The position numbers and the translations under genes were made by a program. A stretch of 64,000 nucleotides of DNA from Spirochaetia bacterium (GTDB taxonomy: Bacteria > Spirochaetota > Spirochaetia > UBA9216), in NCBI GenBank assembly GCA_965140585.1, contig OZ223272.1, forward strand, positions 416,001 to 480,000, written 5' to 3'. Below are positions 22,805-62,992 of the stretch, piece by piece; the stretch's first letter is position 1; every line of letters starts with the position of its first letter. The notes beneath the pieces were generated by a model, which did no database searches, was not told the DNA's origin, and was given only the letters and a program-made list of their open reading frames with translations.

Positions 22805-23492
22805 GAAAAGTGATCATGGCTTCAGTAATCTGCAGATGCTGTTCTTCCTTTGTTATGGAAGCCTCGTTGTCTCCGTTTTGCGGGCCGTAGGAACCGAAAC
22901 CGGAGTGATTACCGCCTTCTATCTCTATAGTAGTAAATCCATCAGGCAGAAGATAGTCGGCCGCTGCAATTTCCTCAGGGGTGGCTACACCGTCAAGGCT
23001 GCCGCGGATTGAAAGTACATCAATTCCGGTATTGCCGCTCAAGTCCCAGTCCGCCGACGGGTAGGAAGCCCAGAAGGCAATCCCTGTGAACTGATCAGGA
23101 TTTCGGAAAACCACCCCCGAAGCCATTGCACCGCCCAGTGAATGTCCGGCTATCCAGTAATCCCTTCCGGGAAAATCTTCCATAACATCAAGGGCAGCAT
23201 TCTGCTTAAAGACAGCCAGGTCGAAGGGCATCTTTACAAGCACTGTGGTAATACCTTCAGATGCAATCATAGTCAGAACAGGCAGATAGGCAGTCTCATC
23301 GACAAGCCCGCCGGGATAGAAAATGAGCAGCTTTGAATCAACAGCACCGCTGTCGGCCTCAATGAGGTAGTATTCTGAAAGCTCAGAAACAGAAACTCCT
23401 GCCGCAAGGTCCGAATCAGAATAATCAGGCGCAAGAGAGCAGGAGCTCAGTAAAAGAAGGGAAATTAAAAGTACGAGTATTCCCGGTTTCAT
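22794..23492 (-). CDS. Alpha/beta hydrolase lipoprotein
   Basis: Lipobox LSSC; FYPGG, GHSLGG, GGNH. Confidence 0.85.
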   Translation of the reverse strand: MKPGILVLLISLLLLSSCSLAPDYSDSDLAAGVSVSELSEYYLIEADSGAVDSKLLIFYPGGLVDETAYLPVLTMIASEGITTVLVKMPFDLAVFKQNAALDVMEDFPGRDYWIAGHSLGGAMASGVVFRNPDQFTGIAFWASYPSADWDLSGNTGIDVLSIRGSLDGVATPEEIAAADYLLPDGFTTIEIEGGNHSGFGSYGPQNGDNEASITKEEQHLQITEAMITFLGE

Positions 23493-33931: not shown

Positions 33932-34819
33932 TCAGCAATCATTGAGTTTAACAAACTGCTTAAAACTATCAATAAACGCTGCAGGAGAGCTGCTGCTGTA
34001 TACAAAATACAGCTCCCTGATAAGAGGACCGAAGGCCAGCGGGCAGGTCTTGATTGAACCTAAAATCAGTTCTTTTTCAATTGCGGTCCGGGACATTACC
34101 GAGCATCCGTATCCTGCTTCTACAAGCGATTTGATTGCACTCAAACTGCCTACTTCCATAATAACTGTTTCCTCAGGCAGGTGCACACTATGTTCTTTAA
34201 GATACTCCTCCCAGTAATACCTCGTACCGGAACCCAGCTCTCTGAGAATCAACCGGGCACCTGAAAGCTCTTTCAGTCCTGCAGCAGAACAACCGGGTGG
34301 GATATAAGCATCAGTACCAATAAAAACCATCTCATCCTTTATAAAAAGTTCTGAGTAATATTTATCCTTTGGAAATGGACCTTCAACCATTGCCAAATCA
34401 ATAGTCCCCTCATCAAGAAGCCGGAGTATCTCCCTTGTGTTTTCAATCCTTATAACAAGTTCCAGCTGCGGGTTAATCTGACGGTATTTTCCGATGTATG
34501 ACGGCAGGATATACTCACCGATGGTCAGCGTAGCGCCTATTGTATAACGCTTCTTCGAGCCCAGCATGTTCTGAAGACCTTTTTCAAGACCGGCACTTAT
34601 ATTCCGCACCTGCTTAGCGGCCTCAAGTACCATATTTCCGGCACCAGTCAAACTCAGCTTTCTGCCTCTGTGTTCAAACAGAGGCACACCGTAAATATAT
34701 TCAAGAGCTTTAATATGCTGGGATACTGCAGACTGGGTCAATCCAAGGCTATCTGCAGCCTTCAGAAGAGTACCCTTTTCAACAACTGCAATCAGTGTTT
34801 TTATACGATAGTCAAGCAT
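33932..34819 (-). CDS. LysR family regulator
   Basis: AADSLGLTQSAVSQHIKALE HTH; RELGSGTR. Confidence 0.92.
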   Translation of the reverse strand: MLDYRIKTLIAVVEKGTLLKAADSLGLTQSAVSQHIKALEYIYGVPLFEHRGRKLSLTGAGNMVLEAAKQVRNISAGLEKGLQNMLGSKKRYTIGATLTIGEYILPSYIGKYRQINPQLELVIRIENTREILRLLDEGTIDLAMVEGPFPKDKYYSELFIKDEMVFIGTDAYIPPGCSAAGLKELSGARLILRELGSGTRYYWEEYLKEHSVHLPEETVIMEVGSLSAIKSLVEAGYGCSVMSRTAIEKELILGSIKTCPLAFGPLIRELYFVYSSSSPAAFIDSFKQFVKLNDC

Positions 34820-48376: not shown

Positions 48377-49780
48377 TTATTGAAAAGCAGGAATGATAAA
48401 TCTTTTCATAATATCATCATCGTATGACCCTCGTACAAAATTTTCTGCAGTAATAACAACAACCAAGTTTAAGTCCTCGATAATAATTATTCGTTGACCT
48501 CCCCAACCTTTAGCGGCTATTGCCCTATATTTTTTTTCATTAACATTATAATTTTTAATCCACCAATAATATCCATATTCATCCCAATTGTTATCATTAG
48601 TTGAAATATGTGTTGTAGTGGATTCTTCTATCCAATCTGCATCTATAATTCGCTGATCATTCCAAATTCCATTTGCCAATACAATTTGACCAATTTTGGC
48701 TATATCAATGGGACGTAATAGAAGTCCTCCCGCCGCGTTTTGACGACCGTCTATTTGTTTGTACCAATATGCGTTTTTTATACCTAATTTAGAAAATGAG
48801 CTTTTACCAGCAGAATCCGCAAGGGATGTTGCGCCCGTCGCATTCTTGATTATTTCGCCTATTACAGTAACATATCCTCCACTATATGTAAAAACCTTTC
48901 CAGGCTCGTATAAAGAAGGAATTGAAAGAACAAACTCAACCGAGTCATTGCTACTCATCTCTCTATTACGAATGTTATCTGAATCATTGTATGAGATATT
49001 CCACTCATTCCAAGCCAATCCAGCTGACATGGTTAATAAGTCTTTAATTGTAATTTTTTCTTTTTCGCCAGTAAGAATTGACTTGTACTCTGGTAAGTAT
49101 TTACTGATGGGATCATCAACACTGTCAATATAACCTTGAGCTATTGCGTCTCCTAAAAGCAGGGATGTAAAGCTTTTACTGATGGACTGCATCTGGTGTG
49201 GCTCTTCCTGGCTCCATCCACGAAAATATTCTTCCACAACTAACTTTCCATTTTTCATTACTAACAAACTGTTTTGTTTCCCGAAATATCCATTTTTGAG
49301 TTTTTCGATCAAATCATTTATTGATACTACGTCACCATTAACCTCGGCTACTGTACCAGTTTTGATTTCGATTTGTGATTCTTCTTCTGTTTCGCTTGCA
49401 TCGATTTTGATCAAATTATCAATTGATTTGTAAATAGCTTCATTATATTCAGTTATAGGTATTTCCAATCTTGTAAGACTTATGTCGATACCATTTTCTT
49501 CGAATGACAAATCTTGATATTTTTTATTTTTCAAATTATTGAAACGACCATCTACAGGATAATTTTTCAAACGAAAGTTGATATCGTTCTCTATAATTAT
49601 TTCATCTTTAACCCTCCAATCATTTATATACAGTTTCCCATTTCGTTCCTTAATGACTACTTTATAAACTTCATTTGAACGATCAGAGTATATGCCAACA
49701 TACTTTGAGTTGTCACCATTATTTGTGCATGAACATAACGCTATTAATAAAAATAGTAGACTTAATTTGACTAATTTCAT
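48377..49780 (-). CDS. Serine hydrolase (beta-lactamase/AmpC-like fold) lipoprotein
   Basis: Lipobox LCSC; SISK (SxxK), LLTMSAG, FTYSG, YGYYWW, GWGGQ; start at 49780 with AAGGAG RBS. Confidence 0.88.
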   Translation of the reverse strand: MKLVKLSLLFLLIALCSCTNNGDNSKYVGIYSDRSNEVYKVVIKERNGKLYINDWRVKDEIIIENDINFRLKNYPVDGRFNNLKNKKYQDLSFEENGIDISLTRLEIPITEYNEAIYKSIDNLIKIDASETEEESQIEIKTGTVAEVNGDVVSINDLIEKLKNGYFGKQNSLLVMKNGKLVVEEYFRGWSQEEPHQMQSISKSFTSLLLGDAIAQGYIDSVDDPISKYLPEYKSILTGEKEKITIKDLLTMSAGLAWNEWNISYNDSDNIRNREMSSNDSVEFVLSIPSLYEPGKVFTYSGGYVTVIGEIIKNATGATSLADSAGKSSFSKLGIKNAYWYKQIDGRQNAAGGLLLRPIDIAKIGQIVLANGIWNDQRIIDADWIEESTTTHISTNDNNWDEYGYYWWIKNYNVNEKKYRAIAAKGWGGQRIIIIEDLNLVVVITAENFVRGSYDDDIMKRFIIPAFQ

Positions 49781-49860
49781 GTAAATAACTCCTTTGTTAA
49801 ATATTTCTCTTCGCCCGTCGGCCGGAGGTCCGGGCGTCTTACTCTTGTTGGGCTCATTGC

Positions 49861-49952
49861 ACATAACGTCCCGGGGTTATACGACGTTCGGCAAAGCCGA
49901 ATGTGGCGCAGCCCGAAGCCCGAATGGGCGGAGCGTATAGCCCCTGTTATGC
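49861..49952 (-). other. attC site 10
   Basis: acataac...gttatgc, 92 bp. Confidence 0.88.
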
Positions 49953-50343
49953 GACGTCGCCTTTATTAGAGAAAGATTCCGATCAATCAAACGATCTAAA
50001 TAATCTCCTCTTACCATTTCTACCCAATATTCTATTCGCCCTTTGCGACTTTCACAATCATTTTTATTTCACCTGCAAGTCAACGAGCAAAGTGAGTGTG
50101 GCAGACTTGCCAAACTGAAAAAACCTGTCATGCCCACGAAGCAGATTTTGATAATTATAAGCCAATACTTTTTCTTTAACGTCAGAACAAACATCGTCCA
50201 ACGCAACGACCTTCTTATAACAACAACCAAATCAAAATCCAAAATCTTCCTCATTCCAGGGCGAATTGAATATTGCAAACTATTTGGTAATCACTTATGG
50301 TTCGGAACTTTCTCCACCCCAAGATCATGCTCCGGCGATGTCC
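49953..50343 (-). repeat. Non-coding cassette type A, copy 1
   Basis: ~391 bp between attC sites, near-identical to six other copies; no conserved ORF. Confidence 0.85.
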
Positions 50344-50438
50344 GCATAACGTTCCGGGGTTATGTGACGTACGGCTTAAGCCGTATGTGGCGCAGCCCGA
50401 GGAGCGCATAGCGACGAAGCACATAGCCCCTGTTAGAC
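50344..50438 (-). other. attC site 11
   Basis: gcataac...gttagac, 95 bp. Confidence 0.88.
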
Positions 50439-50487
50439 GATGTCACGAACCTTCTTCAAAGCCAAGCAACACGGATGTTGTTTGGCT

Positions 50488-50817
50488 TTAATCTATTAAC
50501 ATTTCTTGTAGTATATTCTTGACGAGTTCAACTTCTTTTTTAGTTATTTTCCCTATTTTTTTTATTAGTCTCTTCTTATCAACAGTTCGCAGCTGATCTA
50601 AAACAATCCATCCTTCTTTCTTCTCAAATTTTATTGACACCCGCGTCGGATAAGGATGTGATTTCGTAGTCATCGGAGCAATTATAATTGTCTGAATTGA
50701 CTCATTCATTTCATTTGGTGAAATCACTAAACAAGGTCTTGTCTTTTTAATTTCATGGCCAACTGTGGGATCTAAGTTTATTAAAAATACTTCATATTGA
50801 TGAATTACCATTCCCAT
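50488..50817 (-). CDS. mazF: MazF/PemK toxin
   Basis: LDPTVGHEIKKTRPCLVIS, DQLRTVDKKRL. Confidence 0.93.
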   Translation of the reverse strand: MGMVIHQYEVFLINLDPTVGHEIKKTRPCLVISPNEMNESIQTIIIAPMTTKSHPYPTRVSIKFEKKEGWIVLDQLRTVDKKRLIKKIGKITKKEVELVKNILQEMLID

Positions 50818-51053
50818 TCAAAATCATCCTGATCAGTTAAATTGTCCACAAGTAATGAATCATCCTTATTTTGATGCATCTTCATAAACTCTTCAGACCA
50901 TCCTTCTCTTGGCTTTTTCTTTATAGGTCTAATCAGTATTTCTGTATTATGCACTTCTAACTCTACTTTTTCTTCTATATTTAACTGTTGCAAAATGCTT
51001 TTAGGAATTCGTATCCCTTTTGAATTACCTATAGGAACCACTGAAACTAACAT
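50805..51053 (-). CDS. mazE: MazE/AbrB antitoxin
   Basis: IGNSKGIRIPK. Confidence 0.9.
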   Translation of the reverse strand: MLVSVVPIGNSKGIRIPKSILQQLNIEEKVELEVHNTEILIRPIKKKPREGWSEEFMKMHQNKDDSLLVDNLTDQDDFEWEW

Positions 51054-51072
51054 AATTCACCTCATTATTGTA

Positions 51073-51101
51073 ATTATATAGTAATTACTCCAATTCGTCA
51101 A
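51073..51101 (-). promoter_or_regulatory. Sigma70 promoter of mazEF
   Basis: TTGACG-17-TATAAT with a GTAATTAC palindrome in the spacer. Confidence 0.8.
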
Positions 51102-51154
51102 TCTTTGCTTGCCAGGGATGGTAAGCATCCTCTTTCTCTTAGGTTCGTGATTTC

Positions 51155-51237
51155 GTCTAACGTCCCGGGGTTAAGCGAAGTTGCGCAGCAATTTAGGCGC
51201 AGGCCGAAGGGCCGGAGCCGCTTAACCCCTGTTATGC
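51155..51237 (-). other. attC site 12
   Basis: gtctaac...gttatgc, 83 bp. Confidence 0.88.
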
Positions 51238-51627
51238 GACGTCGCCTTTATTAGAGAAAGATTCCGATCAATCAAACGATCTAAATAATCTCCTCTTACC
51301 ATTTCTACCAAATATTCTATTCGCCCTTGGCGACTTTCACAATCATTTTTATTTCACCAGCAAGTCAACGAGCAAAGCGAGTGTGGCAGACTTGCCAAAC
51401 GGAAAAACCTGTCATGCCCACGAAGCAGATTTTGATGATTATAAGCCAATACTTTTTCTTTAACGTCAGAACAAACATCGTCCAACGCAACGACCTTCTT
51501 CTAACAACAACCAAATCAAAATCCAAAATCTTCATCATTCCAGGGCGAATTGAATATTGTAAACTATTTGGTAATCACTTTTGGTTCGGAACTTTCTCCA
51601 CCCCAAGATCATGCTTCGGCGATGTCC
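51238..51627 (-). repeat. Non-coding cassette type A, copy 2
   Basis: Variant of the type A body. Confidence 0.85.
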
Positions 51628-51805
51628 GCATAACGTCCCGCGGTTATGTGATGTTTTGTGCTCGGCCCTACAGGCCGATTGGCAACTCTTTTGCATACAG
51701 CGCCTTTACCTCACATCTTTCTCCACTTCGCAAAAGTGATGCCAAAACAAAATATGCCGGAGGCCAAGGAGCGTTTAGCGACGCCGCACATAGCCGCTGT
51801 TATAC
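51628..51805 (-). other. attC site 13 (long, linked to type B)
   Basis: gcataac...gcggttatgtg/cacatagccgc...gttatac, 178 bp. Confidence 0.82.
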
Positions 51806-52190
51806 GCCGTCACAAAATAAAGAAAGTTGTACATCATCTTCACAACCTAAAATTTTAGTTCACATTTCAAACTTATTTAATATTCTATTCGACCATACTG
51901 TCTTTCACAATCTTTTTTATTTACTCCGCAAAATAACGAGCTTTGCGAGTGGGCCAGTTTTGCATAAACGTTTCTGCATGCCCCAGCCCCGTACAGATTT
52001 TGATTATTCCAAAGCCAAAACTCTTTCATAGAACGTCAGAAAAAAGTCATTGTTTGAAATTTTTCTTCATCAAAACAAAAATCAAAATCTGAAATCAGAT
52101 CTTAGTCGAACAGAATATTGCCAACTTATTATTTCATTATTTAAGCGCAGCAACTTTCTTCCACCCCATATCCTTGCCCAAAGTGATGGA
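51806..52190 (-). repeat. Non-coding cassette type B, copy 1
   Basis: ~385 bp, near-identical to the 55383 and 61811 copies; distant homologue of type A. Confidence 0.85.
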
Positions 52191-52285
52191 GTATAACGTC
52201 CCGGGGTTATGTGACGTACGGCGATAGCCGTATGTGGCGCAGCCCGAGGAGCGCATAGCGACGACGCACATAGCCCCTGTTATAA
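52191..52285 (-). other. attC site 14
   Basis: gtataac...gttataa, 95 bp. Confidence 0.88.
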
Positions 52286-52375
52286 GCAGTAAGCCAGGCA
52301 TCCAGACCGTCCAACGGAGTTAGGTCTGGATTCTCTCATGTCTTTGTTTTATTAACCTTACTTTCTAAGGTTAAA

Positions 52376-53326
52376 TCAATGAAATATTCCTTTATTATCA
52401 ATTTGCTCTTTTTCGAGATAGCCACCGAAAACCCATCCAATTAATTCACCTTTTTTTATATATACCCATGGGTATTCCATATCATCAATATTATAAGCTA
52501 AAGGACTTACCCCAAGCATTTGTACTTCATCATTTTCTTGAAGCAATCCAATAATATTTGAATTTGTATTTGCTTCACTTCGTATTCTTAAATTCTTTGT
52601 ATTACAATACCCTTTATATGGGCGAGAATATCTATAATCTATAGAATATGCTCCTTTACTCTTCAATATCTTTACATATTCAGAATTTTCTCCATATTTA
52701 CTAACAGCAATGGCTAAAGTTGTCTTAAAATCATTCAATAAATTGATTTTATCTATTTTTACATTCATACTAATAAATATCTCAAAAGCTTCTAAATTGT
52801 TAGCTTCTAATGCTTCTTTTAATAAATCTACACTCAAGTAATTCATACTACTTGGGTCAAATCCATTTTCTATACACAATTTTAAAAACTTATTATTTTT
52901 TTCAATGATGGAATATAAAATTAATGTTTGAGGAAGATCTTCATCTGGCAACTCATCATATAAAGGAACCGCCCCAAGATTCAAAAAAAACTGAATTAAT
53001 TCCTCATTATTATTTTGACATGCGTAATACAAAGGAGTTTTCAAAACAGGATAGTATTCTTCCTCGAAATAGTTTATTTCCAAACCATCTTCTATAAATA
53101 GTTTAACTATTTCAGTTCTATTTTTCTCAAGAGCAGTTCTAAAAAATCTTACTTTTTCTGATGGTTCAATAAAATAATTGATTCTATTCTGATTTTCAAA
53201 AATCTCCTCCATCTTCATTATATCATTTTTAACAATTGCATCTCTCACTTCATCTGAATAATTAAATCTTTCAGCATATATTATTACACCGACTAACATA
53301 AAGAATAAAATCAATATCTTTTTCAT
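52376..53326 (-). CDS. Exported ankyrin-repeat protein with C-terminal bacterial SH3 domain
   Basis: TPLYYAC...LGA ankyrin pattern; NLRIRSEANTNSNIIG...GWVFGGYL. Confidence 0.8.
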   Translation of the reverse strand: MKKILILFFMLVGVIIYAERFNYSDEVRDAIVKNDIMKMEEIFENQNRINYFIEPSEKVRFFRTALEKNRTEIVKLFIEDGLEINYFEEEYYPVLKTPLYYACQNNNEELIQFFLNLGAVPLYDELPDEDLPQTLILYSIIEKNNKFLKLCIENGFDPSSMNYLSVDLLKEALEANNLEAFEIFISMNVKIDKINLLNDFKTTLAIAVSKYGENSEYVKILKSKGAYSIDYRYSRPYKGYCNTKNLRIRSEANTNSNIIGLLQENDEVQMLGVSPLAYNIDDMEYPWVYIKKGELIGWVFGGYLEKEQIDNKGIFH

Positions 53327-53404
53327 TTAATCTCCTTTTTGAAATTCAGTCTTATCGCCCGTCGGCCGGAGGCCCGGGCGTCTTCCTCTTGCCTGGCTTA
53401 TTGC

Positions 53405-53496
53405 TTATAACGTCCCGGGGTTATACGACGTTCGGCAAAGCCGAATGTGGCGCAGCCCGAAGCCCGAATGGGCGGAGCGTATAGCCCCTGTTATGC
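53405..53496 (-). other. attC site 15
   Basis: ttataac...gttatgc, 92 bp. Confidence 0.88.
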
Positions 53497-53887
53497 GACG
53501 TCGCCTTTATTAGAGAAAGATTCCGATCAATCAAACGATCTAAATAATCTCCTCTTACCATTTCTACCCAATATTCTATTCGCCCTTTGCGACTTTCACA
53601 ATCATTTTTATTTCACCTGCAAGTCAACGAGCAAAGCGAGTGTGGCAGACTTGCCAAACGGAAAAAACCTGTCATGCCCACGAAGCAGATTTTGATAATT
53701 ATAAGCCAATACTTTTTCTTTAACGTCAGAACAAACATCGTCCAACGCAACGACCTTCTTCTAACAACAACCAAATCTAAATCCAAAATCTTCCTCATTC
53801 CAGGGCGAATTGAATATTTCAAACTATTTGGTAATCACTTATGGTTCGGAACTTTCTCCACCCCAAGATCATGCTCCGGCGATGTCC
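53497..53887 (-). repeat. Non-coding cassette type A, copy 3
   Basis: In tandem with copy 4 (483-bp period). Confidence 0.87.
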
Positions 53888-53979
53888 GCATAACGTCCCG
53901 GGGTTATACGACGTTCGGCAAAGCCGAATGTGGCGCAGCCCGAAGCCCGAATGGGCGGAGCGTATAGCCCCTGTTATGC
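53888..53979 (-). other. attC site 16
   Basis: gcataac...gttatgc, 92 bp. Confidence 0.88.
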
Positions 53980-54370
53980 GACGTCGCCTTTATTAGAGAA
54001 AGATTCCGATCAATCAAACGATATAAATAATCTCCTCTTACCATTTCTACCCAATATTCTATTCGCCCTTTGCGACTTTCACAATCATTTTTATTTCACC
54101 TGCAAGTCAACGAGCAAAGCGAGTGTGGCAGACTTGCCAAACGGAAAAAACCTGTCATGCCCACGAAGCAGATTTTGATAATTATAAGCCAATACTTTTT
54201 CTTTAACGTCAGAACAAACATCGTCCAACGCAACGACCTTCTTCTAACAACAACCAAATCAAAATCCAAAATCTTCCTCATTCCAGGGCGAATTGAATAT
54301 TGCAAACTATTTGGTAATCACTTATGGTTCGGAACTTTCTCCACCCCAAGATCATGCTCCGGCGATGTCC
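53980..54370 (-). repeat. Non-coding cassette type A, copy 4
   Basis: Near-identical body. Confidence 0.87.
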
Positions 54371-54461
54371 GCATAACGTCCCGCGGTTATATGACGTTCG
54401 GCGTAGCCGAATGTGCCGCAGGCCGAGCCCGAATGGGCGAAGCAAATAACCGCTGTTATAT
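54371..54461 (-). other. attC site 17
   Basis: gcataac...gttatat, 91 bp. Confidence 0.88.
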
Positions 54462-54523
54462 GCTTTGGGCTCAACATCCAGACCGTTCAACGGAGTTAGG
54501 TCTGGATTCTTCTTTCTTTAAAA

Positions 54524-54817
54524 TTAACTAATCTTTCTTTTATCTACTAATTGTCCTGTAATATATTTATGAAGAACACTTTTTACAAAGGTTTGATATT
54601 TCAACCCTTCACTATCTGCGAATTCTTTAATCTTTTCCAATTCAAACTCATCAATTCTAATATTCATTTTTGTTTCTTTTTTTCTAAATTCACGAGCAGC
54701 ACTTTTAAACATTTTCTGTCTTTCAACCGTAGGCTTAGAAATATTTTGAATATCTATACTTTTTAAAGATTCTGCTAAATCTTTTTCTTCATCATCTAAA
54801 TATTTACCATCATTCAT
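54524..54817 (-). CDS. CopG/BrnA-like RHH antitoxin
   Basis: KMNIRI...KIKEFADSEGLKYQTFVKSVLHKY. Confidence 0.82.
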   Translation of the reverse strand: MNDGKYLDDEEKDLAESLKSIDIQNISKPTVERQKMFKSAAREFRKKETKMNIRIDEFELEKIKEFADSEGLKYQTFVKSVLHKYITGQLVDKRKIS

Positions 54818-55088
54818 CTTTTACCTCCTCTATTAAATATAAGAAATCTCTATTTGGAAAAATTGTCTTTAAAAAAATTTCTTCTTCATCTAATACATAC
54901 GGGACACAATATGTATAATCATTTAAATTTACTACCATAATCATTTGATTTGGGTATTTTTCCCGGTTCGGATGCTGAAAATCTAAAAGAACGCCTTCAT
55001 TCTCTATTACTTCAATTATCTGATTAAATGTTATTCCTCGAGTCTTAAATAACAACTCATTCTTTTCAGCATTAAAATTGAACACCAT
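54810..55088 (-). CDS. BrnT-like toxin
   Basis: FNAEKNELL..TRGITF, HPNREKYPNQ, FLKTIFPNR. Confidence 0.82.
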   Translation of the reverse strand: MVFNFNAEKNELLFKTRGITFNQIIEVIENEGVLLDFQHPNREKYPNQMIMVVNLNDYTYCVPYVLDEEEIFLKTIFPNRDFLYLIEEVKDE

Positions 55089-55094
55089 ATTATC

Positions 55095-55124
55095 AGTATA
55101 CCCCCATTGTGCGCACATAGTCAA
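55095..55124 (-). promoter_or_regulatory. Promoter of the BrnT-like TA pair (probably leaderless mRNA)
   Basis: TTGACT-18-TATACT, 6 nt before the ATG; TGTGCGCACA palindrome in the spacer. Confidence 0.65.
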
Positions 55125-55204
55125 TCTATTTTAATTTAATCTAATCTTGACTCTACGCCCGTCGGCCGGAGGTCCGGGCGTCTTTTTCTTGTTGAGCCCA
55201 TTGC

Positions 55205-55382
55205 ATATAACGTCCGCGGTTATGTGATGTTTTGTGGTCGGCCCTACAGGCCGATTGGCAACTCTTTTGCATTCAGCGCCTTTACCCTCTATCTTGCTAC
55301 TACTTCGCAAAAGTGATGCCAAAACAAAATATGCCGCAGGCCAAGGAGCGTTTAGCGACGCCGCACATAGCCGCTGTTATAC
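55205..55382 (-). other. attC site 18 (long, linked to type B)
   Basis: atataac...gttatac, 178 bp. Confidence 0.82.
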
Positions 55383-55765
55383 GCCGTCACAAAATAAAGA
55401 AAGTTGTTTATCATCATCACAATCTAAACAATTCTTTTACTTTTCAAATATCTATAATATTCTATTCGACCATACTGACTTTCACAATCTTTTTTATTTA
55501 CTCCGCAAAATAACGAGCTTTGCGAGTGGGCCAGTTTTGCATAAACGTTTCTGCATGCCCCAGCCCCGTACAGATTTTGATAATTCCAAAGCCAAAACTC
55601 TTTCATAAAACGTCAGAAAAAAGTCGTTGTTTGAATTTTTTCTTCATCAAAATAAAAATCAAAATCTGAAATCAGATCTTAGTCGAACAGAATATTGCCA
55701 ACTTATTATTTCATTATTAAGTGCAGCAACTTTCTTCCACCCAATATCCTTGCCAAAGTGATGGA
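55383..55765 (-). repeat. Non-coding cassette type B, copy 2
   Basis: Near-identical to the other type B copies. Confidence 0.85.
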
Positions 55766-55857
55766 GTATAACGTCCCGGGGTTATACGACGTTCGGCAAA
55801 GCCGAATGTGGCGCAGCCCGAAGCCCGAATGGGCGGAGCGTATAGCCCCTGTTATGC
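55766..55857 (-). other. attC site 19
   Basis: gtataac...gttatgc, 92 bp. Confidence 0.88.
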
Positions 55858-56248
55858 GACGTCGCCTTTATTAGAGAAAGATTTCGATCAATCAAACGAT
55901 CTAAATAATCTCCTCTTACCATTTCTACCCAATATTCTATTCGCCCTTTGCGACTTTCACAATCATTTTTATCTCACCTGCAAGTCAACGAGCAAAGCGA
56001 GTGTGGCAGACTTGCCAAACGGAAAAAACCTGTCATGCCCACGAAGCAGATTTTGATAATTATAAGCCAATACTTTTTCTTTAACGTCAGAACAAACATA
56101 GTCCAACGCAACGACCTTCTTCTAACAACAACCAAATCTAAATCCAAAATCTTCCTCATTCCAGGGCGAATTGAATATTGCAAACTATTTGGTAATCACT
56201 TATGGTTCGGAACTTTCTCCACCCCAAGATCATGCTCCGGCGATGTCC
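55858..56248 (-). repeat. Non-coding cassette type A, copy 5
   Basis: Near-identical body. Confidence 0.87.
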
Positions 56249-56343
56249 GCATAACGTCCCGGGGTTATGTGACGTATGGCGAAAGCCGTATGTGGCGGAG
56301 CCCGAGGAGCGTATAGCGACGAAGCACATAGCCCCTGTTATCT
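56249..56343 (-). other. attC site 20
   Basis: gcataac...gttatct, 95 bp. Confidence 0.88.
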
Positions 56344-56454
56344 GCAGTGTTTCCGCCTCTTCGGCCAGACCGTTCGGCGGAGCCAGGACTGGCCTCTTTC
56401 CTAATCTATTCTCCTCTTCTCAGCTTTTCAAATTCATAAACACTTTTGAATTAA

Positions 56455-56931
56455 TTAAAAATATATTGATAACCCTAACGGTAAGACGAAGAAACTATCT
56501 TCTCCACCATCATAAATTTCATTTGTGATATAATTAGCTTTTAAATACATGAATAATTTCCATTTTTCAACAATCATAAACTGAAGCTGCATTCCACCAA
56601 TCAAGTACAGCTCACTAAACGCATTTTCTCCCGGATGAAAATCAGTTCCAATTCCAGCTTGTAATAATGCATTCAATCTTGGAGTAAACTCTAACGAATA
56701 TCGATAAGTTGTAGAAATTATTGATTGTGGACCCCAATGCCCTGATAACATTAAAATATTATTATTAATTTTATATCCAACACAAGTTTCAGAATATGCA
56801 AAAACACCATCAAAAGATTCTTCTTCAAGTGGTATACTTGTAACTCCTCCTAATTCAAAAACAACCTTATTTTCTCCGAAAGCGAACGAATTACTCAACA
56901 ATAACATTAAAAAAACAAATACCTTTTTCAT
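56455..56931 (-). CDS. Exported hypothetical protein, possible small outer-membrane beta-barrel
   Basis: Signal peptide; C-terminal GLSIYF. Confidence 0.6.
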   Translation of the reverse strand: MKKVFVFLMLLLSNSFAFGENKVVFELGGVTSIPLEEESFDGVFAYSETCVGYKINNNILMLSGHWGPQSIISTTYRYSLEFTPRLNALLQAGIGTDFHPGENAFSELYLIGGMQLQFMIVEKWKLFMYLKANYITNEIYDGGEDSFFVLPLGLSIYF

Positions 56932-57065
56932 AATTTTTCTTCCTCTATAATTTTTATAAATTTGTATTTAATATATCACCTTTAATTAAAGATGCTTGAA
57001 ATTTCTATATTTTCTTCGCCCGTCGGCCGGAGGTCCGGGCGTCTTCCTCTTGGCGGAAACATTGC

Positions 57066-57159
57066 AGATAACGTCCCGGGGTTATGTGACGTTCGGCAAA
57101 GCCGAATGTGGCGGAGCCCGAGGAGCGTATAGCGACGAAGCACATAGCCCCTGTTATCT
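57066..57159 (-). other. attC site 21
   Basis: agataac...gttatct, 94 bp. Confidence 0.88.
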
Positions 57160-57214
57160 GCTTTGTTTCCGCCTCTTCGACCAGACCGTACGGTGGAGCC
57201 AGGGCTAGTCTCTT

Positions 57215-58090
57215 TTAACCCTTAACTACAATCTTTGTTCCAACCCCACCTTCTTTATATATTTCTCTTAATTCTTCTCTAAAATAATCTATTCCAAGAT
57301 CTCCAGAACTATGCATTGGATATAACATTTTTAAAGGTAGCTCTTGAAATCTTTTTTTAGTAAATTCTAATAATTCCTCATTGGCCTGATATAATTGTAA
57401 ACCACCGATTATAGCAATTATATTATCATCACCATTCTTCTTAATATGTTCTATAGTATTTACTATTCCCGAATGACAACAACCACATACTATGATTTTT
57501 TTATTTTCTTCAAGTTCAATCACCAAAGAAATATCATCATCTATCTCATCCTGTTTTTCTTTTCCATTTTCTCTTGTAACAACTTGTTTTAATATTGGAT
57601 TGAGATCTTCTACCTTATTCGTCCTTGATATTTCTCCAGTAGTCCAGATATATTCATTCAAATTATAACGTTCTTTACTCTCGTATATTCTTCCCCTATT
57701 TCTTAGCTCATTAATTTTGGATAATTCTTTAATTCCAACGTTATTTTCTGAGCCATCATCTAATTTTAAGATTTTTTCGTTAAATATGCCTGGATGGCAG
57801 ATTATTTTTGTTTTTTCATTTGAATTATTGTAAGCATATAATAGCCCTCCTGTATGATCAAAATGACCATGACTAAGAACTATATAATCTATATCACTAA
57901 TCTCTAAACCCAGCTTTTTGAGATTAACTTCTAATCTTTCATTTTCAGGTCCTGTATCAAACAATATTTTAATAATGCTTCCATCATCGAATAAGTTTTC
58001 TATTAATGCAGAAAAACCACCGGGAGCATATTCATCTCCAATTAAGGATTTATTATCAACTATAATTGTAATATTCACTTTTTTGATCAT
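57215..58090 (-). CDS. MBL-fold metallo-hydrolase (MJ0448/DHPS-like subgroup)
   Basis: ILFDTG, LSHGHFDHTGG, GCCHSG, GG.., PMHSSG. Confidence 0.85.
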   Translation of the reverse strand: MIKKVNITIIVDNKSLIGDEYAPGGFSALIENLFDDGSIIKILFDTGPENERLEVNLKKLGLEISDIDYIVLSHGHFDHTGGLLYAYNNSNEKTKIICHPGIFNEKILKLDDGSENNVGIKELSKINELRNRGRIYESKERYNLNEYIWTTGEISRTNKVEDLNPILKQVVTRENGKEKQDEIDDDISLVIELEENKKIIVCGCCHSGIVNTIEHIKKNGDDNIIAIIGGLQLYQANEELLEFTKKRFQELPLKMLYPMHSSGDLGIDYFREELREIYKEGGVGTKIVVKG

Positions 58091-58199
58091 TTATATACTC
58101 ACCTCTTTTCCATATTCTATGTACCAATAATTTAAATTACACTTTCTAATAGCCCGTCGGCCGGAGGTCCGGGCGTCTTTCTCTTGGCGGAAACATTGC

Positions 58200-58287
58200 A
58201 GATAACGTCCCGGGCATATGCGAAGTTGGCCGCAGGCCAATTTGGGCGAAGGGGCTTGACCCCGTAGCCGCATGTGCCCTGTTATGC
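58200..58287 (-). other. attC site 22
   Basis: agataac...gggcatatgcg/cgcatgtgccc...gttatgc, 88 bp. Confidence 0.85.
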
Positions 58288-58678
58288 GACGTCGCCTTTA
58301 TTAGAGAAAGATTCCGATCAATCAAACGATCTAAATAATCTCCTCTTACCATTTCTACCCAATATTCTATTCGCCCTTTGCGACTTTCACAATCATTTTT
58401 ATTTCACCTGCAAGTCAACGAGCAAAGCGAGTGTGGCAGACTTGCCAAACGGAAAAAACCTGTCATGCCCACGAAGCAGATTTTGATAATTATAAGCCAA
58501 TACTTTTTCTTTAACGTCAGAACAAACATCGTCCAACGCAACGACCTTCTTCTAACAACAACCAAATCAAAATCCAAAATCTTCCTCATTCCAGGGCGAA
58601 TTGAATATTGCAAACTATTTGGTAATCACTTATGGTTCGGAACTTTCTCCACCCCAAGATCATGCTCCGGCGATGTCC
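58288..58678 (-). repeat. Non-coding cassette type A, copy 6
   Basis: Body near-identical to copy 4 but with a different attC. Confidence 0.87.
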
Positions 58679-58772
58679 GCATAACGTCCCGGGGTTATGT
58701 GACGTACGGCGAAGCCGTATGTGGCGCAGCCCGAGGAGCGCATAGCGACGATGCACATAGCCCCTGTTATCT
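58679..58772 (-). other. attC site 23
   Basis: gcataac...gttatct, 94 bp. Confidence 0.88.
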
Positions 58773-58848
58773 GAAGTGCCCCCGCTCTTCAACCCAACCG
58801 CACGGCGGAGTCAAGGTTGGGTTTCTTTGAACATCTTCAACATTTCTT

Positions 58849-59355
58849 TTAATCAATTATTTTCCCCATCAATAACGCTCCATAGTATCTTCCATTTATT
58901 AAGAACTCACGCTTTTGATTTCCTTCTACCTCAAAACCAATTTTTTCATATAATTTAACAGCCCTGAAATTATCTTCTTTTACTTTTAAATTAATCTTAG
59001 TTTTATCATTCTGTTTAGCCCATAATAATAGAGAAGAAATCATTTCAGTTGCAATCCCTTCTCCCCAATATTGCTTTAAAACATAAACACTAAACTCACC
59101 AACATGTTTATTTCTTTTTCGCCCACCTGATATAAAATATAAACTTCCTATAATTTCGTCCTTATATTCTGCAACTATACAATAATGATTTGAGCTATCT
59201 ATACAATCCTGAACAAGTTCCTTTTCTCTTTCAAATGTTGATATTATTTCTCCAGCACTAAAAGATAATTCATCTGATTCAGTTGCAATTTTATCCATTA
59301 AGATTTTTCTCTTCTCGATATCGTATGATTCAATCTTTCTAATATTATAATCCAT
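58849..59355 (-). CDS. GNAT acetyltransferase cassette
   Basis: HVGEFSVYVLKQYWGEGIAT, NFRAVKLYEKIGF; start uncertain. Confidence 0.88.
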   Translation of the reverse strand: MDYNIRKIESYDIEKRKILMDKIATESDELSFSAGEIISTFEREKELVQDCIDSSNHYCIVAEYKDEIIGSLYFISGGRKRNKHVGEFSVYVLKQYWGEGIATEMISSLLLWAKQNDKTKINLKVKEDNFRAVKLYEKIGFEVEGNQKREFLINGRYYGALLMGKIID

Positions 59356-59468
59356 TTCTTCTTCTTTTTTATTCACTCTCAGATTTTACCATTTTTTTTG
59401 AAATAATCTAAAACTCTTTTTCGCCCGTCGGCCGGAGGTCCGGGCGATTTCTCCCAAGGGGGCATTTC

Positions 59469-59617
59469 AGATAACGGCCCCAGCATAACCGAAGTTGAAG
59501 TGCAACCAAAGGAGTGTTTTGCCCAAAGAGCAAAACCGACTGTCCCTGCTCTCCTTCTCCGCAAGCTTCAATTTGGGTGGAGGCCGAATGGCCGGAACCG
59601 GTTATGGTGTGTTATGT
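59469..59617 (-). other. attC site 24 (expanded arm)
   Basis: agataac...cataaccg/cggttatg...gttatgt, 149 bp. Confidence 0.8.
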
Positions 59618-59740
59618 GCTTTGAGCCCGACATCCAGACCGTTCAACGGAGTTAGGTCTGGATTCTTCATTTATCCAGCTTAAAATTACATTTAATGAAA
59701 TTAAAAACATCAAATAATTTTCTTATAAACTGTATCTTTT

Positions 59741-60622
59741 TTATCCATAATATTTATTTGTAATGATATCATAAAGCTCCTTTTTATATGATTCAGCTTT
59801 ATTTATAAAAGCTTTTTCAACTAATTCTTTTTTCTTTTCATTATTTAAACCTGGAAGATTCGTCATATTAAGCAATCTCTTCAATTCTTCATCAGATAAA
59901 ACTCGTACAACCCAATCTAAATCTTCATTAGCCAAAGCTTTCATTATTTTCTTCTTGATTTTTCGGTTGTACTCAACGGTTTTTATTTTTTCTATAAAAT
60001 TAATTATTCCATATTTAACCAAATCGTACATTAAGGCACCGGTCACAGAAAAGATTAAGGCTTGAATGACATAGTCACCTTCTCCTCCTTTCTCTTCTGG
60101 CATTTCAAGTGTGAGATCTAGTAATCTCTTTAAATATCTATATTTCTCATTATCACAATTATAAAAAGAATTAACAATTTCAATTTCGATTTTATGTACT
60201 TGGGAAAGATTATCTATTTCTTCTAAACTTATCAATGCAACTTCTTTAATAGCGAGATCTATTTCCCTTTTTAATTCTTTCCAAAAATAATCGTAGAAAT
60301 AATACCCCATACTCATTTGTATTTCTATGATAAATTCTTCCTCGCAAACTTCACATTTAACATTCATCTTTAACTTTTCTTGAAAAGTCTCTATTAAGAT
60401 TTCACTTATATCCACTATTTCTATTTCTTCATTTTTATATTCTTCATGCAATGATTTGATAAAGGAAACAGTTTTTTTATTAATATTCTCATAATAATTA
60501 TTCAACAAATCTATACTGTCAAAAACAACAAACTTTCCAGAATTAAAAATATATTTAACAGATTCATCTAATGGCTTTAGTTTTTTACTTCTACATTTTG
60601 GACATTGATTATCATAAAACAT
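59741..60622 (-). CDS. Hypothetical protein with split CxxC...CxxC zinc ribbon
   Basis: CPKC and CEVC; fills the cassette. Confidence 0.7.
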   Translation of the reverse strand: MFYDNQCPKCRSKKLKPLDESVKYIFNSGKFVVFDSIDLLNNYYENINKKTVSFIKSLHEEYKNEEIEIVDISEILIETFQEKLKMNVKCEVCEEEFIIEIQMSMGYYFYDYFWKELKREIDLAIKEVALISLEEIDNLSQVHKIEIEIVNSFYNCDNEKYRYLKRLLDLTLEMPEEKGGEGDYVIQALIFSVTGALMYDLVKYGIINFIEKIKTVEYNRKIKKKIMKALANEDLDWVVRVLSDEELKRLLNMTNLPGLNNEKKKELVEKAFINKAESYKKELYDIITNKYYG

Positions 60623-60709
60623 TTCATTAACCCCTTCCTTTATTTATAATCTTTTCTCTTCGCCCGTCGGCCGGAGGTCCGGGCGTCTTCTTCTTGTCGG
60701 GCTCATTGC

Positions 60710-60801
60710 ACATAACGTTCCGGGGTTATACGACGTTCGGCGCAGCCGAATGTGGCGCAGCCCGGAGCCCGAATGGGCGGAGCGTATAGCCCCTGTTATG
60801 T
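60710..60801 (-). other. attC site 25
   Basis: acataac...gttatgt, 92 bp. Confidence 0.88.
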
Positions 60802-60879
60802 TCAGTAAAAAGGCAGGCCTCCAACTTTAAAGGAGAACTTGTACACGGATGTACAAGTTCTCTCTTTTCATCTTCAAAT

Positions 60880-61566
60880 TCATACATTAAATGCATTTCC
60901 TTTTCCTAAATTACATTCTCTACACTTTGTTTCTAAATTCTCAGGAATGGTTTCTCCTCCTTTTGACCAAGGAAGAATATGATCAACATGTAATTCAACA
61001 CCCAATTCTTTCATTGGACTTCTACCACATTTCTTACATGTAAATCCATCTCGCATCAATATCTTAAAACGTAACCTATCTGAAATTTCTCGTTTTGTTT
61101 TATGAACTATTTGCTGCTTTGATTCTTGCTTAATGATTTCATCTTTCTTTTCTTCGACATCTTCTTCGCTATCATCAGCATTTATAAAAACAACAAATTG
61201 TTCTAAAGCTTTCATCCATGAACCGAATCGACTCTCATATGGTTTTGTAGAAAATGCAGAAAGTGGCTTTTTTATTTCTGAATATCTCGGTTGTCTCCCA
61301 AGTTTTATCCAAACATTTTCTATGTTCTTAAATAATTCTTTTTCCGTAATATTCACTTTTCTATTTATTCTTAATCCTGCTTTCTCTAATGCATCAGTCC
61401 AAGACCCAAATCTATTTTGCAACGTATGATGATTATATTTTCCATACTGTTCATATTCCGCAATTGTAACACTATCTTTTTCTAATGTTTTTGATACTTT
61501 CTTTAAATCTTCTAATAATTTTTCATCTGAGATATTCCTATTGTATTCTTCTAATTCAAACATCAT
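60880..61566 (-). CDS. HNH endonuclease with two homing-endonuclease-associated repeats
   Basis: RFGSW..AL twice; RDGFTCKKCG, HVDHILPWSKGG, NLETKCRECN. Confidence 0.9.
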   Translation of the reverse strand: MMFELEEYNRNISDEKLLEDLKKVSKTLEKDSVTIAEYEQYGKYNHHTLQNRFGSWTDALEKAGLRINRKVNITEKELFKNIENVWIKLGRQPRYSEIKKPLSAFSTKPYESRFGSWMKALEQFVVFINADDSEEDVEEKKDEIIKQESKQQIVHKTKREISDRLRFKILMRDGFTCKKCGRSPMKELGVELHVDHILPWSKGGETIPENLETKCRECNLGKGNAFNV

Positions 61567-61633
61567 TTTCTCATTATACCTTTTTTGGGCCAGGACGGCC
61601 CAAAAACACCCTCCGAAGCCGCCTTTTTATTGA

Positions 61634-61810
61634 ACATAACGTCCGCGGTTATGTGATGTTTTGTGGTCGGCCCTACAGGCCGATTGGCAACTCTTTTGCA
61701 TTCAGCGCCTTTACCCTCTATCTTTCTCCATTTCGCAAAAGTGGTGACAAAACAAAATATGCCGCAGGCCAAGGAGCGTCTAGCGACGCCGCACATAGCC
61801 GCTGTTATAC
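61634..61810 (-). other. attC site 26 (long, linked to type B)
   Basis: acataac...gttatac, 177 bp. Confidence 0.82.
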
Positions 61811-62195
61811 GCCGTCACAAAATAAAGAAAGTTGTACATCATCTTCACAATCTAAACATTTCTTTCACATTTCAAACTTCTTTAATATTCTATTCGACCA
61901 TACTGACTTTCACAATCTTTTTTATTTACTCCGCAAAATAACGAGCTTTGCGAGTGGGCCAGTTTTGCATAAACGTTTCTGTATGCCCCAGCCCCGTACA
62001 GATTTTGATAATTCCAAAGCCAAAACTCTTTCATAGAACGTCAGAAAAAAGTCATTGTTTGAAATTTTTCTTCATCAAAACAAAAATCAAAATCTGAAAT
62101 CAGATCTTAGTCGAACAGAATATTGCCAACTTATTATTTCATTATTTAAGCGCAGCAACTTTCTTCCACCCCATATCCTTGCCCAAAGTGATGGA
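61811..62195 (-). repeat. Non-coding cassette type B, copy 3
   Basis: Near-identical to the other type B copies. Confidence 0.85.
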
Positions 62196-62278
62196 GTATA
62201 ACGTCCCGGGGTTAAGCGAAGTTGCGCAGCAATTTAGGCGTAGGCCGAATGGCCGGAGCCGCTTAACCCCTGTTATGC
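62196..62278 (-). other. attC site 27
   Basis: gtataac...gttatgc, 83 bp. Confidence 0.88.
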
Positions 62279-62667
62279 GACGTCGCTTTTTATTAGAGAA
62301 AGATTCCGATCAATCAAGTGATCTAAAAGAATCTCCACTTCTTATTTCTACCCAATATTCTATTCGCCCTTTGCGACTTTCTCAATCATTTTTATTTTAT
62401 CTGCAAGTCAACGAGCATAGCGAGTGAAGCAGACTTGCTGAACGGAACAACCTGCTGCGCCCGCGAAGCAGATTTTGATAATTATAAGCCAATACTTTTT
62501 CTTTAACGTCAGAACAAACATCGTCCAACGCAACGACCTTCTTCTAACAACCAAATCAAAATCCAAAATCTTCCTCATTCCAGGGCGAATTGAATATTGT
62601 AAACTATTTGGTAATCACTTGTGGTTCGGAACTTTCTCCACCCCAAGATCATGCTCCTGCGATGTCC
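62279..62667 (-). repeat. Non-coding cassette type A, copy 7 (most divergent)
   Basis: Same layout with more substitutions. Confidence 0.85.
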
Positions 62668-62992
62668 GCATAACGTCCCGGGGTTATATGACGTTTTTAT
62701 TTTTCTTAATTTTACCACCAATTACCCGTATTTACCAATTATAAACTATTGCTTCATGTCTGTGCATTTAACGACGATTTGAGTAGCAAAATCGGCCGAG
62801 TCTTCGAGGCATGGCGCAGTTCTGGAACGTAGCGCGATCAGCGCGAAGTGTCTTTAGCCAGAACTGTGACAAAGATTTTGACTACTCCAAATCTCTTGTT
62901 AAATGCTTACACCCAACTTACCCAAATCATAAAATAAAAATGTGGCGCAGCCCGAGGAGCTTATAGCGACGAGCAAATAACCCCTGTTATAG
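62668..62992 (-). other. attC site 28, giant (325 bp)
   Basis: gcataac-gtcccggggttatatgacg...tgtggcgcagcccgaggagc...ataacccct-gttatag with a ~245-bp structured insert. Confidence 0.7.

Follow-up and report, generated by a model that had tools for sequence, protein, structure and literature searches.

What can a cassette that carries no gene be doing in 15 of the 33 units of an integron array? The question is raised by a 64 kb stretch of a Spirochaetia genome (G000:C9:416001-480000, G000 being the source genome and C9 the contig), which is called the window here and whose coordinates are used throughout; C9 DNA beyond it is cited as L001. Sites of the form ATAAC...GTTAT, which resemble the attC recombination sites of integrons, follow one another as an array from about window position 40800 to C9:487010, extending beyond the window, and 33 units delimited by such sites were counted between window positions 40826 and 71010. 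Fifteen of these units belong to two related kinds of cassette, A and B, whose bodies lack any conserved open reading frame (ORF); three of the others exceed 1.9 kb, and each of these probably holds more than one cassette, two in each case. The reading preferred here, with a probability of roughly 0.42, is that A and B are a mobile non-coding element acting in cis at the DNA level, in which a predicted promoter in the cassette sense is combined with a self-pairing body that serves cassette recombination.

Two lineages of one non-coding cassette family

The initial annotation of this DNA had listed seven type A and three type B bodies of about 390 bp, said to make up over a third of the cassettes in their part of the array. 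All ten were found within 2 nt of the positions reported, and they account for 10 of the 17 units inside 49953-62667. The whole genome holds 10 A and 5 B copies, all of them on C9, in one orientation and in the integron array, and an nhmmer search of the 4.85 Mb found no copy outside it (15/15 within the array). The copies of the window, together with the one at the integron attachment site attI, are the following.

49863-50345, minus strand: A1 cassette, with its own 87-nt attC on the + left side and a 396-nt body (49951-50346); 100% identical over 483 bp to A10
51157-51629, minus strand: A2 cassette, 78-nt attC and 395-nt body (51236-51630)
51630-52192, minus strand: B1 cassette, 173-nt attC and 390-nt body (51804-52193)
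53407-53889, minus strand: A3 cassette (body 53495-53890)
53890-54372, minus strand: A4 cassette, the reference copy (body 53978-54373)
55207-55767, minus strand: B2 cassette (body 55381-55768)
55768-56250, minus strand: A5 cassette (body 55856-56251)
58202-58680, minus strand: A6 cassette, with an 83-nt attC of a type also linked to both copies in the congener G002 (body 58286-58681)
61636-62197, minus strand: B3 cassette (body 61809-62198)
62198-62669, minus strand: A7 cassette, with a 78-nt attC; at 92-93% identity to A4 it has diverged furthest among the A copies (body 62277-62670)
C9:486527-487013, outside the window: A10 cassette, the first cassette at attI

Identity between A and B is 60.5-63.8%, compared with 84-98% within the A lineage, in which two tandem copies (G2a and G2b) of the same-genus genome G002 are included, and 94-98% within B. 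The two kinds keep the same motifs in the same order, as had been claimed: the alignment shows the listed blocks to be invariant and in sequence, with diverged stretches between the long invariant blocks and with many insertions and deletions, most of which are not multiples of three.

The cassettes had also been described as non-coding, with no ORF common to A and B, and this description stands, given that no frame is open in all sequences on either strand. A sense-strand ORF of 56-61 codons, beginning with ATG, is present in all 10 A copies of G000, but it is frame-shifted in G2a, G2b retains only 26 codons of it, B does not have it at all, and it is not preceded by the AGGAG ribosome-binding site seen in real cassettes. 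On the + strand a 75-codon frame is open in A2, in G2a (78 codons) and in four of the five B copies and ends near the same column, but a single extra A breaks it in most A copies, G2b and B4 have a stop in it, and in A2 it has no start codon. Variable columns are spread over the three codon phases as 30/28/29 in the A lineage (p = 0.96) and 11/15/6 in B (p = 0.15), that is, with no three-base periodicity. None of eight ORFs matched Pfam at E <= 1, and a search of 5.8 billion proteins, made with the longest + strand ORF only, returned nothing beyond its own contig. A and B encode no conserved protein, and they are two diverged lineages of one non-coding integron cassette family.

A conserved self-pairing body

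The second claim about these bodies was that they contain nested long-range stems with compensating changes. The helices were recovered, and their positions in A4 are as follows.

53996-54009: first arm of helix P1, gagaaagattccga, pairing with 54329-54341
54329-54341: second arm of helix P1, tcggaactttctc
54052-54069: first arm of helix P2, caatattctattcgccct, pairing with 54285-54302
54285-54302: second arm of helix P2, agggcgaattgaatattg
54169-54179: first arm of helix P3, cagattttgat, pairing with 54258-54266; nine of nine core pairs invariant
54258-54266: second arm of helix P3, atcaaaatc
54102-54137: local hairpin P4, stem gcaagtc/gacttgc (in B gcaaaa/ttttgc) with the conserved loop aacgagcNNNgcgagtgNNNcag

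In consensus form, P1 reads gagaaag/ctttctc with a lineage-specific extension, P2 aatattc..ttcgcc/ggcgaa..gaatatt and P3 agattttgat/atcaaaatct. Between A and B a G-C pair of P1 becomes A-T at alignment columns 20/372 and a C-G pair of P2 becomes A-T at columns 93/318. Two pairs of P4 are likewise compensated, and the 3-nt centre of its loop varies (AAA/TTT/TAT/ATA) between constant flanks. Over the full structure of 40 pairs, 99.8% of 400 cells pair: 32 pairs never vary, three change one side to give G-T, and five, including the change from cgcc/ggcg to cgac/gtcg, change both sides and remain paired, all compensations deriving from the single A/B split and the structure having been derived from the sequences on which it was tested. 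In controls in which the partner was slid by 1-3 columns, 34-53% of cells pair and no compensation occurs. All eight stem pairs that differ between A and B remain paired on the + strand, and within the A lineage one of 80 stem columns is variable, against 96 of 325 other columns (Fisher p = 9e-10).

Most of this signal is sequence conservation of the helix arms, and between A and B the unpaired blocks (the -35/A-tract block, the P4 loop and ttctgacgtt) show the same degree of invariance as the stems. Conservation in the A lineage is highest over the first 100 nt in the cassette sense, which are nearly invariant. Judged by this pattern of variation among the aligned copies, both the nested inverted repeats and several unpaired blocks are shown to be under purifying selection.

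When A4 and B3 are folded singly, both strands of each yield the same long-range helices, and folds of the alignment agree with them. Relative to dinucleotide shuffles, the z-scores are -3.2 on the minus and -4.8 on the plus strand for A4 and, respectively, -3.1 and -3.8 for B3, with 0/100 shuffles as good each time; when the + strand of attC-A4-attC is folded as DNA, z is -5.07 (20 shuffles) and P1-P3 are retained. The initial annotation had noted that a mismatch in B becomes a G-U pair on the minus strand. The pair itself exists in four of the five B copies, but as a strand argument it falls, since the + strand has pairs that are G-T only. Choosing a strand by wobble pairs was consequently rejected: each strand has pairs that only it can form (3-4 of them), which leaves the wobble argument unable to pick either. 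The minus strand is G/T-rich, as stated earlier, the + strand of A4 having 57 G and 104 C. A mini-hairpin in the P4 loop would, by inspection, contain tandem G.A on the + strand and pyrimidine mismatches on the minus strand. The fold may act as RNA or as single-stranded DNA, the modelled stems working equally on both strands and as DNA.

A predicted promoter in the cassette sense

The conserved motifs ctttcacaatc and aatattctattcg read on the minus strand as GATTGTGAAAG and CGAATAGAATATT, giving TTGTGA-17-TAGAAT preceded by AAATAAAAA. The initial annotation had counted a match to a described promoter cassette as evidence against its interpretation, and two of its own motifs form a sigma-70-like -35/-10 pair with fixed 17-nt spacing.

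54056-54084, minus strand: promoter-like site of A4, TTGTGA-17-TAGAAT preceded by AAATAAAAA, directed to its own attC and the next cassette
61887-61915, minus strand: promoter-like site of B3, TTGTGA-17-TAGAAT

In a scan of both strands of the alignment it is the sole promoter-like site that all 10 sequences possess, and in a simple promoter scan it was found in every A and B copy within range. Between A and B the hexamers are invariant and five of the 17 spacer bases differ; variants of the -35 are TTGAGA in A7, which is nearer to the consensus, and TTGTTT in G2b, which is worse. Over the 86 nt reaching from the -10 region through P4, 15 of 17 copies are free of indels, A9 and G2b each being one base short. 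The site lies about 75 nt before the end of the body in the cassette sense, and no terminator-like site was detected on the sense strand in 49700-56400. In the stretch from the recombinase gene intI to cassette 3, A10 and B5 supply the first sense promoter-like sites that follow the gene, and in attI no promoter exceeded the scan threshold.

From the conserved sigma-70-like site, which is a prediction from sequence, we infer that A and B are 'promoter cassettes'. The prior is favourable, because sense promoter activity has been measured in the ORF-less cassettes MMB37 and TMB4 of Treponema reverse integrons, the latter in first position (PMC6557892), and in most of 29 gene-less cassettes of Vibrio (PMC11014356). 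Blanco et al. caution that such promoters are beyond in silico prediction (PMC11014356). A sigma-54 or sigma-28 promoter, a LexA box and a DnaA box or iteron origin were dropped on inspection of the sequence, and so was a Frpo-like single-stranded-DNA promoter, the -35 being unpaired in the fold.

Mobility and copying to attI

A distance of 70 nt separates the end of the array from the stop codon of a 357-aa tyrosine recombinase encoded on the minus strand (L001 7080-8153), which scores 229.4 bits with NCBIfam NF040815 'tyrosine recombinase/integron integrase' (cutoff 220) and 192.8 bits with TIGR02249 integron integrase, below its cutoff of 265. The long ORFs of the array are all on the minus strand. 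Recombinase and cassettes thus share one strand, the 'reverse' integron arrangement that has been described for Treponema by Blanco et al. and Tansirichaiya et al. (PMC11014356; PMC6557892).

Every A and B copy is flanked by ATAAC...GTTAT sites. On the + strand the mobile unit consists of the left attC and the body, the right-hand attC being variable: the same 173-nt attC stands to the left of five of five B bodies and the same 87-nt attC to the left of seven of ten A bodies, and A bodies occur in all with three attC types, of 87 nt, 78 nt (A2, A7) and 83 nt (A6, G2a, G2b). A 174-nt attC of the B type is attached in G002 to an ORF cassette (189 aa; L048/L049, G002:C4, reverse-complement coordinates 22188-23128), a genome in which no B body was found. 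The three attC types on A and the B-type attC on this ORF cassette imply that bodies and attC sites re-assort.

A1, the most distal copy, matches A10, the copy at attI, without a single difference over the 483 nt that their attC and body comprise, and this identity ends at the ATAAC boxes. The junction of A10 with attI is ...CGCATAAC followed directly by TCAGAAT, 70 nt from the recombinase stop codon. The composition of the mobile unit, the limits of the identity and this junction together establish that the cassette sense is the minus strand and that crossover takes place in the core box. As A1 and A10 lack any difference, A was copied to attI too recently for changes to accumulate, and the sequence points to A10 as a recent integrase-type copy made by cassette recombination. 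Five of the six attI-proximal units are A or B, and every B cassette (5/5) directly neighbours an A, with A then B three times and B then A twice (permutation p = 0.014-0.033, depending on the total number of cassettes assumed); 13 of the 15 copies touch another A or B copy (49863-62669 and L001 2845-7010).

The minus strand carries the leading-strand GC skew, and solely from the cassette boundaries we infer that the + strand is the 'bottom' strand and the leading-strand template, an orientation that Loot et al. report for large arrays (PMC5371416).

A cassette with a P-loop ORF (MSKLIIIRGNSGSGKTSL...) stands three times in succession at L001 354-2844 (window-equivalent 64354-66844), so that cassette multiplication in the array is not confined to A and B.

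Complementary cassette ends and parallel self-pairing cassettes

Self-pairing extends to the ORF cassettes of the array, where two 14-nt segments of one cassette, the one following its left core box and the one preceding its right core box, are complementary to each other. On average 10.7 of 14 positions pair between a cassette's own ends, compared with 8.1 for the ends of other cassettes and 6.7 for random 14-mers, and several cassettes reach 14/14; such pairings, for example 52284-52297 with 53393-53406 and 56342-56355 with 57054-57067, are cassette-specific. The corresponding end pairings of A and B, ggcgatgtccgc/gcgacgtcgcc and gtgatggagt/acgccgtcac, are extended inward by P1-P3. End pairing would lengthen the attC stem well beyond the crossover point in the excised circle, and in a single-stranded array it would bring the two flanking attC sites together.

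Comparable cassettes occur in other spirochaetes. In G005, a different genus of the same family, the three attI-adjacent cassettes (L061:148-1215 = G005:C10:185148-186215) are ORF-less and of about 290 nt; cassettes 1 and 2 are 67-70% identical, and the third matches only over a 46-nt core at 80%. The two that were folded each fold end to end (z = -6.7 and -2.4; 15 mononucleotide shuffles, one strand), their terminal stems are compensated (ccagac/gtctgg versus ccgaac/gttcgg), and the cassettes share the conserved block aatcaa.ccgctttatttt. They have no significant similarity to A or B and constitute a different family. In G261, which belongs to another spirochaete family, a 473-nt ORF-less cassette (L064/L065, G261:C1; reverse-complement 33934-34406 of the joined 40 kb) is AT-rich inside, is bounded by GC-rich inverted repeats and also folds end to end (z = -7.9; 15 mononucleotide shuffles). 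ORF-less cassettes occupy the first position in two of the four arrays whose attI end was examined. The self-pairing family of G005 and the complementary ends of most units here hint at an unrecognised cassette-design rule in spirochaete reverse integrons.

Distribution and database searches

The collection of homologues and the Rfam search that the initial annotation had proposed were both carried out. Of 401 genomes of the class searched by BLASTN, 45 had a match of some kind at E <= 0.01, but the bodies were matched only in G000 and its congener G002, and the matches in the remaining genomes were to the attC part or to pieces of 20-53 nt only. At the levels of family and order, which comprise the same 11 genomes, the element was found in two; additional hits of 23-36 nt (E = 0.003-0.006) were judged to be chance. 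A covariance model of the 86-nt core likewise matched 2 of 151 class genomes. A pattern scan of 185,579 species genomes returned one other record, a metagenome-assembled genome labelled 'Spirochaetia bacterium' that is apparently G002, and of the 14 metagenome contig loci that the pattern scan also gave, nhmmer matched none outside the pattern itself. Viral contigs, plasmids and phages yielded no match.

Among the contigs of four sequencing runs, those of X1 and X2 contain A and B, those of X4 contain attC parts only, and those of X3, which comes from another study, contain A-like pieces with 37 and 53 differences in 322-323 nt (about 84-88% identity). Joints reported in the run contigs were explained by repeats and set aside.

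No family of Rfam 15 matched, with 0 hits at the gathering score in the 64 kb; the best match below threshold in the A2-B1 stretch had E = 0.71 and 16 bits, compared with a gathering score of 100. A search for antisense targets, with A4 or B3 against the rest of the array, found nothing above 13-17 nt (E > 0.1), and the long motifs have no occurrence elsewhere in the genome.

Weighing the explanations

If A and B act at the DNA level, their promoter would start transcripts that run through their own attC into downstream promoter-less cassettes. The self-complementary body would fold whenever the cassette takes single-stranded form, be it within the replicating array or as an excised circle; the end 'clamp' that most array units have would continue inward in A and B as P1-P3 and give a rod stacked on the attC hairpin. 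Such a rod may draw the flanking attC sites towards each other and make the excised form more stable, thereby favouring the excision and re-insertion of its own cassette, and this proposed aid to excision and insertion could explain why the copies are numerous and clustered and why an identical one is found at attI. A role of the stems at the DNA level is favoured because of the identical attI copy, the five A or B units among the six nearest attI and the position of each B beside an A.

Several points weigh against this explanation. The promoter match is only 9/12, and the region holds 22 such sites compared with 19.0 +/- 4.7 in shuffles, which is no enrichment; by a rough estimate, one conserved site would arise by chance in about one of five cases. 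The promoter accounts for only about 45 of 390 nt and leaves unexplained the remaining stems, the invariant P4 loop aacgagcNNNgcgagtgNNNcag, the ttctgacgtt block and the near-invariant first 100 nt of the A lineage. The predicted fold leaves the -35 unpaired and places the -10 within P2, so that the promoter and fold readings are not independent of each other. Both the congener G002 and G010 have an ORF cassette in first position, the side of the unpaired attC bases is at odds with the canonical rule for the recombining strand, and the minus strand is G/T-rich, as structured RNAs often are.

It is possible, and to be regarded with some doubt, that the self-pairing fold itself is the function, A and B being a hyper-mobile parasite or a helper of the integron that boosts its own excision and capture and seeds promoters along the array; on the same evidence, the alternative would be a new class of large structured RNA spread by the integron.

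Rather unlikely, on balance, is that A and B encode a large structured non-coding RNA of about 390 nt on the minus (cassette-sense) strand, made from the array transcript or an upstream promoter, with a regulatory, protective or protein-binding role, which the integron merely carries and amplifies. The conserved helices with five compensated pairs, the invariant unpaired blocks, a P4 loop that is conserved around a freely varying 3-nt centre, the almost invariant first 100 nt of the A lineage and the G-U pairs that on the minus strand complete P2 in B and P3 in A would all suit an RNA, for which the integron-cassette-encoded small RNA sRNA-Xcc1 is a precedent (as cited in PMC8876359). However, neither strand has a conserved promoter upstream of the body or a terminator after it, the helices are conserved mainly in sequence (32/40 pairs never vary), and both strands fold about equally above shuffles, the + strand slightly better (A4 z = -4.8 versus -3.2) and with G-T-only pairs of its own. 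The tandem G.A of the P4-loop mini-hairpin on the + strand also points away from a minus-strand RNA, as do the lack of an Rfam family, the lack of an antisense target in the array and the confinement of the family to one genus in all searches. In the original description of a structured RNA or single-stranded DNA element amplified as a cassette, the ORF-less family, the conserved stems and the amplification (A1 = A10) hold up, but action as RNA does not follow from stems that fold equally on both strands and as DNA. Its suggestions of a defence function, an antitoxin RNA or a protein sponge found no evidence.

More unlikely still is a purely selfish cassette, whose rod-like single-stranded DNA fold would only raise its own excision and insertion with no benefit to the host, the promoter-like site being incidental AT-rich sequence. 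The identical copy at attI, the share of a single family in the array (15/33 units) with its clustered copies, the absence of a carried gene, the generality of cassette-end complementarity in the array and the different self-pairing ORF-less family at array positions 1-3 of the sister genus G005 are what such a cassette would be expected to show. But a pure folding role leaves the invariant unpaired blocks unexplained, the family has persisted long enough for A/B identity to fall to 62% and is present in two species, and copy number is weak evidence here, because the P-loop ORF cassette is tripled too.

That A and B are decayed remnants of a protein-coding cassette, or encode a small protein, is very improbable: the sense ORF of the ten A copies and the 75-codon + strand frame, and the derivation of some gene-less cassettes from degraded genes according to Blanco et al. 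(PMC11014356), speak for it, but the first frame is not kept in G2a, G2b or B and lacks a Shine-Dalgarno sequence, the second is broken in most A copies, G2b and B4 and has no start codon in A2, and there is no codon periodicity, no Pfam match for eight ORFs and no protein relative of the one ORF searched.

Comparison with known systems

ORF-less cassettes and promoter cassettes are already known (PMC6557892, PMC11014356, PMC8876359). Closest to A and B are the Treponema promoter cassettes TMB4 and MMB37 (Tansirichaiya et al. 2019, PMC6557892), which are also ORF-less, have their own attC and sense sigma-70-like promoter sequences, and one of which is in first position. Their promoter activity was measured, whereas that of A and B is only predicted; unlike A and B, they are not described, in the portion of that paper at hand, as having long-range self-pairing, a two-lineage family or a 15-copy amplification, a distinction drawn from the published description.

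The gene-less cassettes of the sedentary chromosomal integron of Vibrio (Blanco et al. 2024, PMC11014356) resemble A and B in their size of about 0.5 kb, their place in a large chromosomal array and the repeats that some contain, and they are proposed to switch on silent downstream cassettes. They differ in belonging to canonical integrons of another phylum, in start sites that are often scattered and in the origin of some from decayed genes; the term 'secondary structure' has 0 occurrences in the text of PMC11014356.

The cassettes of sRNA-Xcc1, a trans-acting small RNA of Xanthomonas (Chen et al. 2011, as cited in PMC8876359), are, like A and B, non-coding and ORF-less. No Rfam family matched the window, including any for sRNA-Xcc1 if Rfam holds one. 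A and B are presumably several times longer than this small RNA.

Comparable too, as conserved structures found repeatedly in arrays and perhaps functioning as folded single-stranded DNA rather than RNA, are attC sites and complex single-stranded DNA motifs of cassette arrays (Weinberg et al. 2017, PMC5737381, on the DUF1874 motif), and for such motifs single-stranded DNA and RNA were stated not to be distinguishable bioinformatically (PMC5737381). Unlike attC sites, A and B lie between two ordinary attC sites, with crossovers in the attC R boxes.

Palindromic intergenic repeats such as the Correia elements of Neisseria and the ERIC elements of enterobacteria are multi-copy, non-coding and rod-forming, have outward promoter potential, alter the expression of neighbours and fold in transcripts; they spread by transposition and are marked by terminal inverted repeats and by duplication of the target. 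A and B share with them the copy number, the lack of coding and, by prediction, the rod and the outward promoter potential, but 15 of 15 copies are within the array, bounded by attC and moved as cassettes. A palindromic repeat of this type, resembling a miniature inverted-repeat transposable element, was rejected, as no copies lie outside the array and the boundaries are the attC crossover points. An HUH nick-site hairpin or IS200/IS605-type element, a retron and a type I or III toxin-antitoxin system were dropped on inspection.

In the portions at hand of the literature on ORF-less cassettes, no description was found of a family that is conserved, pairs with itself, comprises two lineages and has multiplied to fill about 40% of an array.

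Other features of the array

A MazE/MazF-like toxin-antitoxin cassette lies between A1 and A2 (50346-51156) and has its own strong promoter-like site, TTGACG-17-TATAAT (11/12), at 51101-51073 on the minus strand. The cassette immediately downstream of B3 (60880-61566, minus strand) encodes a 228-aa protein that is probably a stand-alone HNH endonuclease, since its last 75 residues resemble the HNH part of the IscB and Cas9d models (E = 1.5e-10, a match far below the model cutoffs); an omega-RNA for this neighbouring protein was dropped on inspection as an explanation of the A and B cassettes.

Two kinds of hairpin recur in the ORF cassettes. A conserved GC-rich hairpin (cgcccgtcggccggaggtccgggcg) lies 20-30 nt upstream of the ribosome-binding site (+ strand positions 49812-49836, 53356-53380, 57018-57042 and 60661-60685), and a second (ccagacc...ggtctgg), similar to the first, follows the stop codon (54472-54506 and 59628-59662). 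Both are followed by T-rich runs on the + strand, antisense to the genes, and therefore look like terminators of antisense transcription.

The genome contains a second integron, at C6:916646-966432. Its recombinase-like frame (C6:916646-917620) is 51% identical to the C-terminal part of the C9 recombinase, and about 25 repeats of a 140-nt attC type (ATAACGACGATTTGAGTAGC...GTTAT) follow at a spacing of 0.8-7 kb, with three further copies on C2. One copy of this attC type is nested within the 320-nt C9-type attC to the right of A7 (62671-62990), a nested form that is also found three times in G002 and that explains the very high depth of 62784-62951 in all four sequencing runs compared.

Significance

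With its many copies of one gene-less family, the array is a natural test case for how, in large chromosomal integrons, distal cassettes come to be expressed and for what decides which cassettes move, and the architecture of A and B lends itself to designed disruption and repair. Should the stems prove to govern excision or capture, cassette bodies, and not only attC sites, would tune integron dynamics; if they act as RNA, integrons would spread large structured RNAs. The complementarity of cassette ends across the array may, in addition, matter for the recombination of reverse integrons.

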